A program made the position numbers and the translations under genes. The notes under the pieces were generated by a model, which saw nothing but the letters and a program-made list of their open reading frames with translations, had not been told where the DNA came from and did not search any database. DNA of 7,745 bases. Source: a virus. Taxonomy: Duplodnaviria > Heunggongvirae > Uroviricota > Caudoviricetes. Below, one piece after another: positions 17 through 6,707 of the stretch. Numbering within the stretch: the first letter of the stretch is position 1; each line of letters begins with the position of its first letter. The DNA lies in the IMG/VR virus record IMGVR_UViG_2671180921_000004, positions 1 through 7,745 of that record. One strand, given 5' to 3'.

Positions 17-157
17 TTATCCATTTTGGGGAACTCCTGGCTGATTAAGTACGTCGATGAGTCGTTTCCATCCGTCACGTAATTTACGTGTGATTCGCTC
101 AAGTAAAGATTCGGAAGGGCAGCCAGCAACAGGCCACCCTGCAATGGCATATTGCAT
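17..157 (-). CDS. cIII: cIII-like regulatory protein (FtsH/HflB inhibitor that stabilises cII), 46 aa
   Basis: Not in the ORF track (under 60 aa). Minus-strand translation from the ATG at 157 gives MQYAIAGWPVAGCPSESLLERITRKLRDGWKRLIDVLNQPGVPQNG*, matching lambda cIII as I recall it almost residue for residue over the N-terminal 43 aa. A TAAGGAG Shine-Dalgarno lies about 6 nt upstream. Stop TAA is at 17-19 (plus-strand tta). Confidence 0.8.
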   Translation of the reverse strand: MQYAIAGWPVAGCPSESLLERITRKLRDGWKRLIDVLNQPGVPQNG

Positions 158-262
158 GGTGTGCTCCTTATTTACGCTTTAAATTGCTCCGTGTATTCAC
201 TCGTTGGAATGAATACACAGTGCAGTGTTTATTCTGTTGTTTATGCCAAAAATAAAGGCAGA

Positions 263-886
263 CTATGCGGCCTCGGAAGGAAGTCCAATCATCTTATTCA
301 AATCTTCTACCCGTAAAGCAGGAAGTGCTGTACTTGCTTTATCTGCTTCTTTTGGTAGCAATTCTTTGCTTTCAGGCCAAACTTCAATAAGTCGCTTAAC
401 TGTTGTGACTGAGTTCAAAGCAGCCCATACATTTGATTCGATATCCTTTTTCTTGTCTTCAAGTTTTTGTTGCAATGCGCAGATTTCATCAAACCTTTTT
501 GTTATTTCGTGTTCTGCGTCAAACATGCATTTATCTTTGGTCGGAGTAGGGAGCAATATATCTTCGCCGTTGCCGTCTTTCCCATATGAATGCCATCCAA
601 CCCTTCTGCCAGATACAGTCAGATAAATCGAAGTAGAACGAACATCGCATGAGTAAAATGAACATCCCATCTTTTCAAGTTCTTCACTTATAGCTACTAA
701 CCTGGATGATAACTGATCCACTTCATCAGTTTTCTTTTTACCGCCAAACGCAATAACTCTGGCGTCAAGTGCAAGCTGGTTCTTTAACTTTGTTACTTCT
801 TCAAGTTCAGTGAAAACCCCAGACTTAATTAAAGCGTTACGAGCGATTTCCTCTTTCATTCTCGTAGTTAAGCGGATTGATGACAT
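263..886 (-). CDS. hypothetical early-left (PL operon) accessory protein, 208 aa
   Basis: Long minus-strand ORF (track 263..946). The start was chosen at the internal ATG at 886 (MSSIRLTTRMKEE...), which is preceded by GAGAGGA; the longer track ORF would run to within 2 nt of the N stop. Same orientation as cIII and N. No family recognised from the sequence alone. Confidence 0.6.
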   Translation of the reverse strand: MSSIRLTTRMKEEIARNALIKSGVFTELEEVTKLKNQLALDARVIAFGGKKKTDEVDQLSSRLVAISEELEKMGCSFYSCDVRSTSIYLTVSGRRVGWHSYGKDGNGEDILLPTPTKDKCMFDAEHEITKRFDEICALQQKLEDKKKDIESNVWAALNSVTTVKRLIEVWPESKELLPKEADKASTALPALRVEDLNKMIGLPSEAA

Positions 887-947
887 ATTAATTCCTCTCA
901 AATAAGTGGTTTGCTGCCTAATTTCATTTTCTGGCGACCAACACAAG

Positions 948-1220
948 TCATCTTGCTGTCAGTTGTTTGGATTTCCGGTAGCCTGCCGCGTAAAGAGCTA
1001 CGTTCGGAAGACAAGTTGAGCCTTCATATTTTCTGGTCAACGTTGTCAGTGTTATTACTTCTGCTCTCATTGCTGGTTTGCGCTTGCATTGCAAGACCAC
1101 TCGAGAGGGGGTTGGTCTGTGTAGCTTGTCGGAGCTAATCGCCTCCTGACTTTGCAGGTTTGCGCGACGAGCTCTACGACGAGAAGCTGAGGTGCCTTTA
1201 AATTCTGTTTTTCTGGACAT
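948..1220 (-). CDS. N: N-like transcription antitermination protein, 90 aa
   Basis: Start taken at the ATG at 1220 (MSRKTEFKGTSASRRRARRANLQSQ...), preceded by GGGAGGA. The N-terminal arginine-rich motif SRRRARRA resembles the lambda N ARM (QTRRRERRAEKQ). The C-terminus LPNVALYAAGYRKSKQLTAR resembles the P22 gene 24 (N-like) C-terminus as recalled. It lies immediately downstream of the nutL and PL elements. Confidence 0.75.
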   Translation of the reverse strand: MSRKTEFKGTSASRRRARRANLQSQEAISSDKLHRPTPSRVVLQCKRKPAMRAEVITLTTLTRKYEGSTCLPNVALYAAGYRKSKQLTAR

Positions 1221-1660: not shown

Positions 1661-2065
1661 TCACTTATTACTGTTCGTTTCCATGGGATTGGCCAAGAAA
1701 TCAAAATAAGGCAGAGTGAACCTACCAAGATTTGACATGAGGATAATTTGCTCGGCATATGTTTTTATATAGGGATATGCCATATTGGGAGCAATGGACC
1801 TTACCTCATATGATTTTGCCATTTCATGAGAAAAATCATCTTCTGACCGGAAGTCAAAGTCGTATGTGATGTCCATCTCAAGCCTGCCTTCAATAGTTAC
1901 GGAGGCAAAATATCTCACTCTAAATAGCTTTGAATCCTTCACATTAGTGTAAAGTTCATTATTTAGATTAACGGTTGTTTTTATGGCTTTTTTTGCTGTT
2001 GAATCGCCTTCTAGCCGTGTCATAACCAAGCGTTCAACTTTTTTGCTAATGAGTTCAATTTTCAT
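1661..2065 (-). CDS. SecB-like chaperone, third gene of a toxin-antitoxin-chaperone (TAC) cassette, 134 aa
   Basis: ORF track 1661..2065. Its start ATG overlaps the upstream gene's stop by 4 bp (ATGA), indicating translational coupling. The C-terminal region ...SIAPNMAYPYIKTYAEQIILMSNLGRFTLPYFDF... resembles the E. coli SecB segment ...[38 protein letters not shown]... as recalled. Size is similar to SecB. Product call is from memory-based similarity only. Confidence 0.6.
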   Translation of the reverse strand: MKIELISKKVERLVMTRLEGDSTAKKAIKTTVNLNNELYTNVKDSKLFRVRYFASVTIEGRLEMDITYDFDFRSEDDFSHEMAKSYEVRSIAPNMAYPYIKTYAEQIILMSNLGRFTLPYFDFLANPMETNSNK

Positions 2066-2718
2066 GGTAATAATAAGTAATTTCCGTCAGAAGTCATTTC
2101 GTCATTCAGGTTGCTAGCCGCTGTGAAACTTGATGACAAGTTACTTATCAAAGAAAAAACATTCCGTTTTTCTTTGCATTTGCCGTTACCCCTTACTGCG
2201 CTGAACAACATTTTTGAAAAGTAAGATTCTGTAGCCTTTTCAGCGAAATAAGCAGAAGGTGATGTGACGGCTGACTCACACCGAGCAATGACGCTAGTCA
2301 TGGCTGTTTCTTCTTCCTCTGCGTCAACTAGGCTCCATTCAATTGCGCTCATATCTTGAATTAAGATATCTGCAGGAATTCCAAGTCCGTCATGTAGTCT
2401 ACGGATCATTGAAAGACTTAATGGACGCTTACGATTTAAGACCTCAGATACTTTAGATGCTGAGCCAATGTATTGTTTCATATCGGCATAAGAGAGGCCT
2501 TGTTGATCCATACGGAACTTGATTGCTTCTATGGGATCTGGCTTGTCCATAGGGAACTCGCGTGACTCATAGTGCTCGATAAGCAAGCCTAGTAGTTCAA
2601 ACTCATCAAAATCTTCAGTTCCAGGTTGTAAATCACTAGACGCAAGTTCAATGAGCCTTTCCATAGCTGCAGCATGCTCTTCACTATTTTTAATGATGCG
2701 CCAGCTAGTTCGATTCAT
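2062..2718 (-). CDS. higA: HigA-family HTH (XRE-type) antitoxin with a ~96-aa C-terminal extension, 218 aa
   Basis: ORF track 2062..2718. Residues about 66-121 (IKFRMDQQGLSYADMKQYIGSASKVSEVLNRKRPLSLSMIRRLHDGLGIPADILI) align with the HTH end of E. coli HigA (...IRTLMDQYGLTLSDLPEIGSKSMVSRVLSGKRKLTLEHAKKLATRFGISPALF) as recalled. GGAGG lies 5 nt upstream of the ATG. 4-bp ATGA overlaps with the HigB stop upstream and the SecB-like start downstream. Confidence 0.8.
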   Translation of the reverse strand: MNRTSWRIIKNSEEHAAAMERLIELASSDLQPGTEDFDEFELLGLLIEHYESREFPMDKPDPIEAIKFRMDQQGLSYADMKQYIGSASKVSEVLNRKRPLSLSMIRRLHDGLGIPADILIQDMSAIEWSLVDAEEEETAMTSVIARCESAVTSPSAYFAEKATESYFSKMLFSAVRGNGKCKEKRNVFSLISNLSSSFTAASNLNDEMTSDGNYLLLP

Positions 2719-3002
2719 TTAAGCCTCCACTTGTCGTACTCTGCATGAGTTCCAACTCTTTCAACTATGACCATTCCTGCCTGGTAAACAACTTGGACAA
2801 CGAGCCGATAGTTATTGCCTTTTATATTAAAAATTACCCTGTTGTTAGGAAGGAAGTCGGCAGAATTAAATCTATTCCGTATGTCTTGAGTCGTTTTCCA
2901 GTTTTCTCTTATCACTTCATCATACCAAGAGTCTAAAGCCCCCTTGGCCTGATTGTGCTTCCGGCTAAAACTGTGAAGCTTCTCTACGTTTAAGACCTTC
3001 AT
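2715..3002 (-). CDS. higB: HigB-family toxin (RelE/ParE superfamily mRNA interferase), 95 aa
   Basis: ORF track 2715..3002. The segment NRVIFNIKGNNYRLVVQVVYQAGMVIVERVGTHAEYDKW aligns with E. coli HigB HYVFNVGGNELRVVAMVFFESQKCYIREVMTHKEYD as recalled. Toxin-first gene order is typical of higBA. Confidence 0.85.
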   Translation of the reverse strand: MKVLNVEKLHSFSRKHNQAKGALDSWYDEVIRENWKTTQDIRNRFNSADFLPNNRVIFNIKGNNYRLVVQVVYQAGMVIVERVGTHAEYDKWRLK

Positions 3003-4543: not shown

Positions 4544-5443
4544 ATGACAAATACAGCAAAAATACTCAACTTCGGCAGAGGTAACTTTGCCGGACAGGAG
4601 CGTAATGTGGCAGATCTCGATGATGGTTACGCCAGACTATCAAATATGCTGCTTGAGGCTTATTCAGGCGCAGATCTGACCAAGCGACAGTTTAAAGTGC
4701 TGCTTGCCATTCTGCGTAAAACCTATGGGTGGAATAAACCAATGGACAGAATCACCGATTCTCAACTTAGCGAGATTACAAAGTTACCCGTCAAACGGTG
4801 CAATGAAGCCAAGTTAGAACTCGTCAGAATGAATATTATCAAGCAGCAAGGCGGCATGTTTGGACCAAATAAAAACATCTCAGAATGGTGTATCCCTCAA
4901 AACGAGGGAAAATCCCCTAAAACGAGGGATAAAACATCCCTCAAATTGGGGGATTGCTATCCCTCAAAACAGGGGGACACAAAAGACACTATTACAAAAG
5001 AAAAAAGAAAAGATTATTCGTCCGAGAATTCTGGCGAATCCTCTGACCAGCCAGAAAACGATCTTTCTGTGGTTAAACCGGATGCTGCAATTCAGAGCGG
5101 CAGCAAGTGGGGAACAGCAGAAGACCTGACCGCCGCAGAGTGGATGTTTGACATGGTGAAGACCATCGCGCCATCAGCCAGAAAACCGAATTTTGCTGGG
5201 TGGGCTAACGATATCCGCCTGATGCGTGAACGTGACGGACGTAACCACCGCGATATGTGTGTGCTTTTCCGCTGGGCCTGCCAGGACAACTTCTGGTCCG
5301 GTAACGTGCTGAGTCCGGCCAAACTCCGCGACAAGTGGACCCAGCTCGAAATCAACCGTAACAAGCAACAGGCAGGCGTGACAGCCAGCAAACCAAAACT
5401 CGACCTGACAAACACTGACTGGATTTACGGGGTGGATTTATGA
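4544..5443 (+). CDS. O: replication initiation protein O (origin-binding), 299 aa
   Basis: Translation matches lambda O as recalled (MTNTAKILNFGRGNFAGQERNVADLDDGYARLSNMLLEAY...). AGGAG RBS upstream. Contains the ori iterons internally. Stop overlaps the P start (ATGA). Confidence 0.95.
   Translation: MTNTAKILNFGRGNFAGQERNVADLDDGYARLSNMLLEAYSGADLTKRQFKVLLAILRKTYGWNKPMDRITDSQLSEITKLPVKRCNEAKLELVRMNIIKQQGGMFGPNKNISEWCIPQNEGKSPKTRDKTSLKLGDCYPSKQGDTKDTITKEKRKDYSSENSGESSDQPENDLSVVKPDAAIQSGSKWGTAEDLTAAEWMFDMVKTIAPSARKPNFAGWANDIRLMRERDGRNHRDMCVLFRWACQDNFWSGNVLSPAKLRDKWTQLEINRNKQQAGVTASKPKLDLTNTDWIYGVDL
4892..5016. other. origin of replication (ori-lambda type): four ~19-bp iterons with internal dyad TCCCTC-N5-GAGGGA, followed by an AT-rich DNA-unwinding region
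   Basis: Iterons visible at about 4892-4910, 4911-4930, 4931-4955 and 4956-4980 (ATCCCTCAAAACGAGGGAA, ATCCCCTAAAACGAGGGAT, ATCCCTCAAATTGGGGGAT, ATCCCTCAAAACAGGGGGA), then AAAAGACACTATTACAAAAGAAAAAAGAAAAGATTA. Located inside the O coding sequence as in lambda. Confidence 0.85.
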
Positions 5444-6141
5444 AAAACATCGCCGCACAGATGGTTAACTTTGACCGTGAGCAGATGCGTCGGATCGCCA
5501 ACAACATGCCGGAACAGTACGACGAAAAGCTGCAGGTACAGCAGGTTGCGCAGATCATCAACGGTGTGTTCAGCCAGTTACTGGCAACTTTCCCGGCGAG
5601 TCTGGCTAACCGTGACCAGAACGAACTGAACGAAATCCGCCGCCAGTGGGTTCTGGCTTTCCGGGAAAACGGGATCACCACAATGGAACAGGTTAACGCA
5701 GGAATGCGCGTAGCCCGTCGGCAGAATCGACCATTTCTGCCATCACCCGGGCAGTTTGTTGCATGGTGCCGGGAAGAAGCATCCGTTATCGCCGGACTGC
5801 CAAACGTCAGCGAGCTGGTTGATATGGTTTACGAGTATTGCCGGAAGCGAGGCCTGTATCCGGATGCAGAGTCTTATCCGTGGAAATCGAACGCGCACTA
5901 CTGGCTGGTTACCAACCTGTATCAGAACATGCGGGCCAATGCGCTTACTGATGCGGAATTACGCCGTAAGGCCGCAGATGAGCTTGTCCATATGACTGCG
6001 AGAATTAACCGTGGTGAGGCGATCCCTGAACCAGTAAAACAACTTCCTGTCATGGGCGGTAGACCTCTAAATCGTGCACAGGCTCTGGCGAAGATCGCAG
6101 AACTCAAAGCTAAGTTCGGACTGAAAGGAGCAAGTGTATGA
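5440..6141 (+). CDS. P: replication protein P (DnaB helicase loader), 233 aa
   Basis: Translation matches lambda P as recalled (MKNIAAQMVNFDREQMRRIANNMPEQYDEK...). ATGA overlap with the O stop. Confidence 0.95.
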   Translation: MKNIAAQMVNFDREQMRRIANNMPEQYDEKLQVQQVAQIINGVFSQLLATFPASLANRDQNELNEIRRQWVLAFRENGITTMEQVNAGMRVARRQNRPFLPSPGQFVAWCREEASVIAGLPNVSELVDMVYEYCRKRGLYPDAESYPWKSNAHYWLVTNLYQNMRANALTDAELRRKAADELVHMTARINRGEAIPEPVKQLPVMGGRPLNRAQALAKIAELKAKFGLKGASV

Positions 6142-6500: not shown

Positions 6501-6707
6501 GTGGTTGAGTTGATTTTTTCTGCATTGAGGATTCTCGGTGCTATGTGGATGGTGTCGACGTTCATTGCGGTTGTCGGAAGTTTTGTCCGGTTGGTAGGCG
6601 AAGGTAAAGACCTGGTGGGTGTGCTGTTCGGTAGCATTCTCCTGTGGGTGATTATCGGTGTTGCGCCTGTCGCTGTAGCAAAAATGGCGTGGCGTTTTGT
6701 TAGTTGA
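6501..6707 (+). CDS. small hydrophobic protein with two predicted transmembrane segments, 68 aa (GTG start)
   Basis: ORF track 6501..6707. Two hydrophobic stretches (ILGAMWMVSTFIAVVGSFV and LVGVLFGSILLWVIIGVAPVAVA). GGGGAGAG lies about 6 nt upstream of the GTG. Coding status is uncertain: short, non-ATG start. Confidence 0.4.
   Translation: MVELIFSALRILGAMWMVSTFIAVVGSFVRLVGEGKDLVGVLFGSILLWVIIGVAPVAVAKMAWRFVS

Follow-up and report, generated by a model that had tools for sequence, protein, structure and literature searches.

An Nmad5 family gene in the N–cIII interval of a lambdoid phage: context, predicted structure and possible roles

The window, by which we mean the whole 7,745-nt stretch of DNA analysed, raises the question of what is encoded by a leftward gene between the genes for N and cIII. 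The slot directly behind N usually holds the gene for Ral, the restriction alleviation protein of lambda. The original prediction had placed here a gene of 208 aa from no known family and had suggested an accessory function such as anti-restriction, host takeover or exclusion. We asked whether the gene is real, to which family it belongs, and what its neighbours, its conserved residues and its predicted fold suggest about its role.

The nmad5 gene and its surroundings

The six-frame ORF list and the reverse-strand sequence place the coding sequence, nmad5, on the minus strand at positions 263–886, from an ATG at 886 to a TAG stop codon at 265–263. The stop codon is included in these coordinates, and the predicted 208 aa are 208 codons, i.e., 207 aa and the stop. 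A Shine-Dalgarno motif, GAGG, is found at 894–897 (minus strand), 8 nt before the ATG. A longer version initiating at a TTG at 946 (227 aa) was rejected, since all 19 of the 19 aligned homologues have M-S-S-[IV]-R-L-T as their N-terminus and thereby favour the ATG at 886. The product is charged and rich in Lys and Glu, as had been described (10.1% of each); it contains 32 Lys and Arg residues versus 34 Asp and Glu residues, for a net charge of about −2. A comparison of 44 close alleles gave a pN/pS of 0.45, with a premature stop codon in one of them only. This, together with the Pfam and PHROG matches and the 2302 family representatives described below, puts the ORF far beyond chance.

The flanking genes were identified as predicted. 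The cIII gene (17–157, minus strand; Pfam Lambda_CIII, E=3.1e-30) is the downstream neighbour of nmad5, and the N antiterminator gene (948–1220, minus strand; Pfam N_peptide, 7.6e-32; PHROG 271, 5.9e-25) is its upstream neighbour in the same operon. Within the 118-aa ORF the N_peptide match starts only at residue 27, and the real start of N is therefore taken to be the ATG at 1220. The spacers measure 61 nt towards N and 105 nt towards cIII, and besides nmad5 we saw no other credible gene in the N–cIII interval, in agreement with the single gene reported there. An Rfam Lambda_thermo element, the cIII thermoregulator (112–170, minus strand; 88.5 bits, E=3.7e-21), spans the start of cIII and begins inside the nmad5–cIII spacer.

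A consensus scan located a promoter-like site, TTGACC-17-TACTAT, at 1411–1439 on the minus strand, approximately 525 nt upstream of nmad5. Just upstream of this site, and following the repressor-side operon, is a terminator-like hairpin at 1652–1633. From the gene order of lambda we infer that the promoter-like site is pL. Consensus scans of the region between it and cIII detected no promoter-like or terminator-like sites. The interval had been called a moron hot spot, and the part of that term which refers to a variable accessory interval holds; a promoter and terminator belonging to nmad5 itself are unsupported by the consensus scans, and the term is therefore a loose one. The gene reads as a cassette within the pL–N operon and not as a self-contained moron.

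Two further elements border the gene. The 77-nt segment 3’ of nmad5 contains a 9-bp perfect inverted repeat, GTGTATTCA-n10-TGAATACAC (191–218, minus strand), which is followed by no T-run and was not called by the intrinsic terminator scan. An identical segment follows ral in phage 2B8, indicating that the repeat belongs to the backbone rather than to the cassette. On the other side, a short frame at 898–1014 (minus strand) runs up to the nmad5 ribosome-binding site and, in a different reading frame, covers the last part of the intact N gene (948–1220). It ends in ...MTCVGRQKMKLGSKPLI, which we take to resemble the C-terminus of lambda N. The frame is also found in phage 2B8, and its equivalent in the Stx1a prophage of E. 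coli 2013C-4830 is annotated by PGAP as a partial antitermination pseudogene; it is probably the scar of a recombination between N alleles.

A three-gene module (1661–3002, minus strand) occupies the rexAB position, between pL/N and a cI-like repressor gene. It consists of a HigB toxin (2715–3002, minus strand; Pfam HigB_toxin, 4.5e-30; PADLOC PD-Lambda-2_A, 2.5e-42), an HTH antitoxin of 218 aa with a long extension at its C-terminus (2062–2718, minus strand; PD-Lambda-2_B, 3.8e-50 over the first 123 aa) and a 134-aa protein (1661–2065, minus strand; PADLOC PD-T4-9_C, 3.2e-11, full length; PHROG 10298). Judged by these profile matches, the module looks like a toxin-antitoxin-chaperone type of defence that would be expected to be co-expressed with the repressor in lysogens. 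It is also present in the Stx1a prophage of E. coli 2013C-4830.

The Nmad5 family and the cassette

Profile matches assign the nmad5 product, with near certainty, to the Nmad5 family (Pfam PF18757, ‘Nucleotide modification associated domain 5’), as a stand-alone protein of full length. The match has an E-value of 6.6e-71 and a score of 239.1 bits, against a gathering cut-off of 27, and aligns protein residues 4–203 with profile positions 1–206 of 206; PHROG 1965, of unknown function, was matched at 3.6e-83. No NCBIfam model matched the protein. The view that the protein belongs to no known family is thus superseded: the NCBI pipeline names it in the 211 of 5426 complete E. coli genomes that carry the gene, and in all matches listed the RefSeq name is ‘Nmad5 family putative nucleotide modification protein’. 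The original prediction had held that a match to a characterised housekeeping phage protein would speak against its reading; the family found here has a name and no demonstrated activity, and the literature searched contains no report of a biochemical activity on nucleotides or DNA for any Nmad5 member. Hypothetical proteins of the mEp235, HK542, SH2026Stx1, Japanese Stx1a and PhiR12 phages and of APC_JM3.2 are 95–98% identical to the window’s protein, and the closest chromosomal context of the gene is the Stx1a prophage of E. coli 2013C-4830. Neither the sequence nor the named family is new, and nmad5 is an accessory gene that is annotated routinely.

The family is large. A profile search of 1.8 billion representatives (E up to 0.001) recovered 2302 clusters at 50% identity, each with its representative, and among the best 150 of these 2302 nearly all are single-stretch, stand-alone proteins of 190–220 aa. 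All of 60 diverse members (60/60) matched Nmad5 alone in Pfam; a search of the same 60 for a second Pfam family, at E up to 1, returned scattered coiled-coil matches only. The window’s protein matched none of the families in PADLOC-DB (E up to 0.1) and none of the known anti-defence families. A DNA mimic of the Ocr/ArdA type was also considered and rejected, given the net charge of about −2 and the lack of any Pfam or fold match to such proteins.

Comparison with the ral-bearing phage 2B8 by blastn delimits the cassette at 260–896 (minus strand). Window positions 183–259 and 897–1652 align to 2B8 at 96–97%, and 260–896 does not; the breakpoints lie at most 10 nt from the nmad5 start codon and at most 3 nt from its stop codon. 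In 2B8 the place of the cassette is taken by a 283-bp segment that encodes a 66-aa Ral, and a 525-bp ea10 segment of 2B8 is absent from the window. The same flanks thus carry ral and ea10 in 2B8, which bears out the description of the interval as one that holds accessory genes.

Gene order was constant in 80 close IMG/VR loci. nmad5 was located downstream of N/Nun and upstream of ea10, cIII, kil or gam, with no violations of this order (0 of 80). Of the 80 loci, 11 have ral as the gene directly preceding nmad5, and 14 have ea10 downstream of it. This co-occurrence means that the interval is an array of independently shuffled small cassettes, in which nmad5 is the neighbour of ral and not its alternative. 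The proposal that nmad5 is a functional replacement of ral was rejected as stated, since the two are adjacent in those 11 loci.

The cargo to the left of nmad5 varied. Directly downstream of the gene, 16 of the 80 close loci carry a 354-aa ORF (MSLVTKQEPTCSDYWKSS...; e.g., at 6703–7764 (+) in one of them), and in other close loci ORFs that by eye are Rad52-, SSB-, RecT- or Erf-like are found 3’ of nmad5 instead of cIII. Homologues with 43–56% identity in Providencia, Serratia and Klebsiella prophages occupy the first place, or one close to it, in the operon that runs away from the S24 repressor gene, and recombination or replication genes come after them.

Predicted structure, conservation and the Tmn-escape site

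An AlphaFold2 model from a 60-sequence alignment reached a mean pLDDT of 91.4 and a pTM of 0.82, and its topology agreed with that of an earlier model built from 20 sequences (pLDDT 84.7). The predicted structure contains long helices at residues 8–22, 24–46, 50–72 and 127–158, two short helices within 163–176, and a small β-sheet at 86–100 with short strands up to 122. The possible coiled coil of the original prediction corresponds to the long predicted helices at 8–72 and 127–158. No solved relative of the predicted fold was found. In the tail (residues 181–207) pLDDT falls to 52–74, compared to values above 90 in the body.

Conservation was assessed in 148 diverse sequences. Positions conserved at 80% or more include, in the N-terminal part, the initiator Met, R5, L6, I14, A18, G23, R43, G48 and G49; in the central part, G93 and V153; in a C-terminal module, T162, L166, W170, P171, E172, E175, L176 and P178; and in the tail, L188, P189, L196, N197, G201, L202 and P203. 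The family-wide motifs R-L-T..I..NA, R43..G-G, T..L...W-P-E..E-L.P and L-P-A...L-N..I-G-L-P are all present in the window’s protein, and each of those motif residues listed above is 82–100% conserved across the 148 sequences. Codons 163–172 (371–400, minus strand), which encode V-K-R-L-I-E-V-W-P-E, begin the C-terminal module, and L166, W170, P171 and E172 are conserved at 97–99%. Among the conserved positions of the 148 sequences there is no His/Cys/Asp/Ser cluster and no recognisable cofactor motif, which suggests that the conserved residues may be non-catalytic.

Conservation peaks in the C-terminal module and the tail, of which the tail is the part that the model cannot fix. Encoded by codons 181–207 (266–346, minus strand), it carries L188-P189-A190 ... 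L196-N197-x2-I200-G201-L202-P203, with N197 conserved at 100%, L196 at 99% and G201 at 95%. Strong conservation combined with low model confidence would be expected of a tail that takes up its fold on binding a partner. Readings of the tail as a clamp-binding segment or as a helix-turn-helix were dropped after inspection by eye, as neither consensus fits.

Phenotypic data exist for a relative from Dhillonvirus, in which a single Lys-to-Glu change in nmad5, K296E in SM_S22 or K216E in SM_A8, allows escape from the Tmn defence, and reversion of the change restores Tmn sensitivity (PMC11846954). Deletion of nmad5 gives no escape from Tmn, and the deleted phage could be synthesised and spot-tested; the gene itself was uncloneable in E. 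coli, apparently as a result of toxicity (PMC11846954). The abstract of a 2026 preprint on Tmn names T2 RIIB as a trigger.

The deposited SM_S22 gene (PP627283, CDS6, 5005–6009 (−)) encodes 334 aa and overlaps a scaffold gene. Its annotated start is probably 80 codons too early: initiation at the homologous M81-R-L-T-K-D gives a protein of 254 aa, as in SECphi18 gp24. An 80-residue false extension would make K296E and K216E equivalent. K296 of SM_S22 is the second Lys of T-D-K-K-L-I-K-A-W-P-E and, in a pairwise alignment, aligns with R165 of the window’s protein. Position 165 is Lys or Arg in 111 of the 148 sequences and directly precedes the near-invariant L166. By this alignment, the one functional lesion known from any Nmad5 protein lies within the conserved C-terminal module.

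The family name and possible roles

The name of the Nmad5 family rests on gene neighbourhood in a few lineages, and we take its source to be the computational paper cited as reference 29 of PMC11846954. In Pseudomonas phage M6, gp56 lies among PLP-enzyme, radical-SAM-like and thymidylate-synthase-like genes, i.e., a thymidine-hypermodification cluster. In the N4-like Shigella phage B2, gp19 comes after DNA polymerase and thymidylate synthase genes and before genes for an AAA protein and SSB. Klebsiella prophages carry Dam and C5-methylase genes 3–4 kb downstream of the nmad5 homologue in the same operon. Other homologues keep different company: that of phage ZRG1 is situated between the terminase and portal genes, that of eiAU-183 after the helicase-primase gene, and those of Dhillonvirus inside the head-gene block on the opposite strand.

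A census of distant contexts, in which 80 IMG/VR loci were reduced to 18 groups at 70% identity and four ORFs on each side were compared with Pfam, gave a broader view. Upstream of nmad5 were HTH/S24 repressors, N, O/P, DUF2800, Enc34-type SSB, primase zinc ribbon, PolA and terminase; downstream were SNF2/DEAD helicases, DUF2800, AAA_24, YqaJ, RecT, DUF669, PolA, VRR-NUC and DinI. No methyltransferase, glycosyltransferase, thymidylate-synthase-like protein or kinase was among the families listed within four ORFs in the 18 contexts. The ORF list and Pfam likewise revealed no modification gene in the 7.7-kb window, and these two negative results together leave the label unsupported for the window’s nmad5. 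The recurrent company of the gene is the immunity/early region and replication-recombination modules. Taken with conserved residues that seem non-catalytic, an early operon position beside ral and a defence-escape mutation within the conserved module, the lack of modification partners suggests that the ‘nucleotide modification’ label may mislead for the family. The nearest modification-related genes to a close orthologue are those of the nin region of the Stx1a prophage of E. coli 2013C-4830 (13983–15146), a Lar-family restriction-alleviation gene and an N6-adenine methyltransferase gene; they are approximately 7 kb from nmad5 and not adjacent to it.

Our tentative reading, to which we assign somewhat less than an even chance, is that the nmad5 product is an early protein without catalytic activity that binds a partner and serves counter-defence or host takeover; the absence of catalysis, the partner binding and the counter-defence role are each proposed with low confidence. 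Near certain, by contrast, is the place of the gene as a small cassette within the leftward early (pL) operon of a prophage that is lambdoid and resembles Stx1 phages. If transcribed from pL, it would be expressed early in the lytic cycle, after N antitermination has set in. Its non-catalytic product would have a compact, novel helix-and-sheet body (residues 1–180), and the C-terminal module T162-x-K-[KR]-L ... W170-P-E-x2-E-L-x-P178, followed by the flexible tail L188-P-A ... L196-N-x2-I-G-L-P203, would dock to a partner, from the host or the phage, that takes part in DNA metabolism or defence. nmad5 would thus be an optional counter-defence or host-takeover factor and not a core function. 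The counter-defence part of this reading draws on the early placement adjoining ral, on the patchy distribution of the gene, on the finding that a Dhillonvirus with nmad5 deleted can be built and plated (PMC11846954), and on the apparent cloning toxicity and the Tmn-escape mutation in the Dhillonvirus relative. The absence of a His/Cys/Asp/Ser set and of a modification gene nearby argues for a non-enzyme, and the invariant residues in the sole low-confidence part of an otherwise very confident model point to the tail as the partner-binding segment.

Several observations stand against this reading. The protein has no homology to any known anti-defence protein and is not an acidic DNA mimic, and the Tmn result comes from an unrelated phage and from a protein that is 32% identical over half its length. 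E172 and E175, which are invariant or near-invariant, could still form an active site with R5 and R43. An anti-restriction or host-takeover role for nmad5 is possible, but the co-occurrence with ral in 11 of the 80 close loci weakens it in the form of a ral replacement. The wider proposal, that Nmad5 proteins are no nucleotide-modification proteins at all but widespread early effectors of a new fold whose conserved C-terminal module and tail bind a component of host DNA metabolism or immunity, with the lambdoid copy serving counter-defence and the Tmn-escape site marking the interaction surface, we regard as rather doubtful.

The distant contexts are mostly of replication and recombination genes, and they would equally fit a helper in DNA metabolism. 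Nmad5 might then assist phage DNA replication or recombination as an accessory factor (a loader, a scaffold or an end-protection helper) that acts with SSB, recombinase, exonuclease or polymerase rather than against the defences of the host. The DUF2800, Enc34-type SSB, PolA, helicase, AAA_24, RecT, YqaJ, DUF669, VRR-NUC and O/P families of the 18 distant loci agree with such a role, as do the polymerase, AAA and SSB neighbours in phage B2, the helicase-primase in eiAU-183 and, in lambdoid phages, the position of nmad5 upstream of gam/bet/exo or of a Rad52/SSB/exonuclease block. However, nmad5 is missing from most lambdoid phages that share N, cIII, gam/bet/exo and O/P with its carriers, the gene occurs in 211 genomes compared to 4182 that match some part of the window, it is exchangeable for the ral segment, and in Dhillonvirus and ZRG1 it is housed in head or packaging regions and not in replication modules. 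We consider this role unlikely. A part in the modification of nucleotides or DNA bases, whether as an enzyme, as a specificity or activating subunit, or as a methyltransferase stimulator in the manner of Ral, appears improbable. Ral acts via the host type I modification enzyme, and the nmad5 slot is next to ral or takes its place; the M6 cluster, the thymidylate synthase beside B2 gp19 and the methylases downstream in Klebsiella also speak for a modification role, and the M6 and B2 contexts, as the basis of the family name, count against our non-modification reading. Against a modification role is the lack of modification genes in the window and in the 18 distant contexts, from which the label finds no support for this copy.

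Lastly, the gene could belong to the prophage as an exclusion or defence function that protects the lysogen from other phages. The N–cIII interval of lambda holds sieB-type exclusion genes, and the window contains the defence-like toxin-antitoxin-chaperone module nearby. The consensus scan found no promoter of nmad5’s own, so that the gene should be silent in a repressed lysogen; the protein has no PADLOC match, and family members are frequent in N4-like, Dhillonvirus and M6-like phages, which are not known to be lysogenic. We find an exclusion role very hard to credit. For the window itself little changes; nmad5 is a catalogued gene, and published phage genomes contain near-identical copies of it. 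The Nmad5 label concerns thousands of phage lineages, the Shiga-toxin phages among them, and identification of what Nmad5 binds would provide a function for a large block of phage ‘dark matter’. The partner might also account for the interaction of some phages with Tmn.

Among known systems, the closest are the lambdoid orthologues. mEp235_037 (AFM76255.1) is 98% identical to the window’s protein, and the mEp235, HK542 and Stx1a orthologues and WP_000095081.1 share its length and its place after N/Nun and before cIII. Nothing of substance differs between the window’s nmad5 and the mEp235, HK542 and Stx1a genes, and it is another allele of the same gene. Ral of phage 2B8 has the same operon, orientation, flanking sequences and exact location, but it is a Cys-rich protein of 66 aa, whereas Nmad5 has 207 aa, and the two have no resemblance in sequence or size.

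More distant comparisons are provided by M6 and Dhillonvirus. M6 gp56 and its relatives in Yuavirus, phages with hypermodified thymidine, belong to the same Pfam family, and their C-terminal 87 residues are 32–43% identical to those of the window’s protein; gp56 is embedded in a base-hypermodification cluster, whereas no such genes accompany the lambdoid nmad5. The Dhillonvirus protein (SM_S22 CDS6, SECphi18 gp24) is the sole member with phenotypic data (PMC11846954). It shares with the window’s protein the N-terminal R-L-T...I..N and the C-terminal module, with 32% identity over residues 103–203. It differs in its longer, divergent middle, for a total of 254 aa compared to 207 aa, and in its setting: the regions of Dhillonvirus examined contain no lysogeny module.
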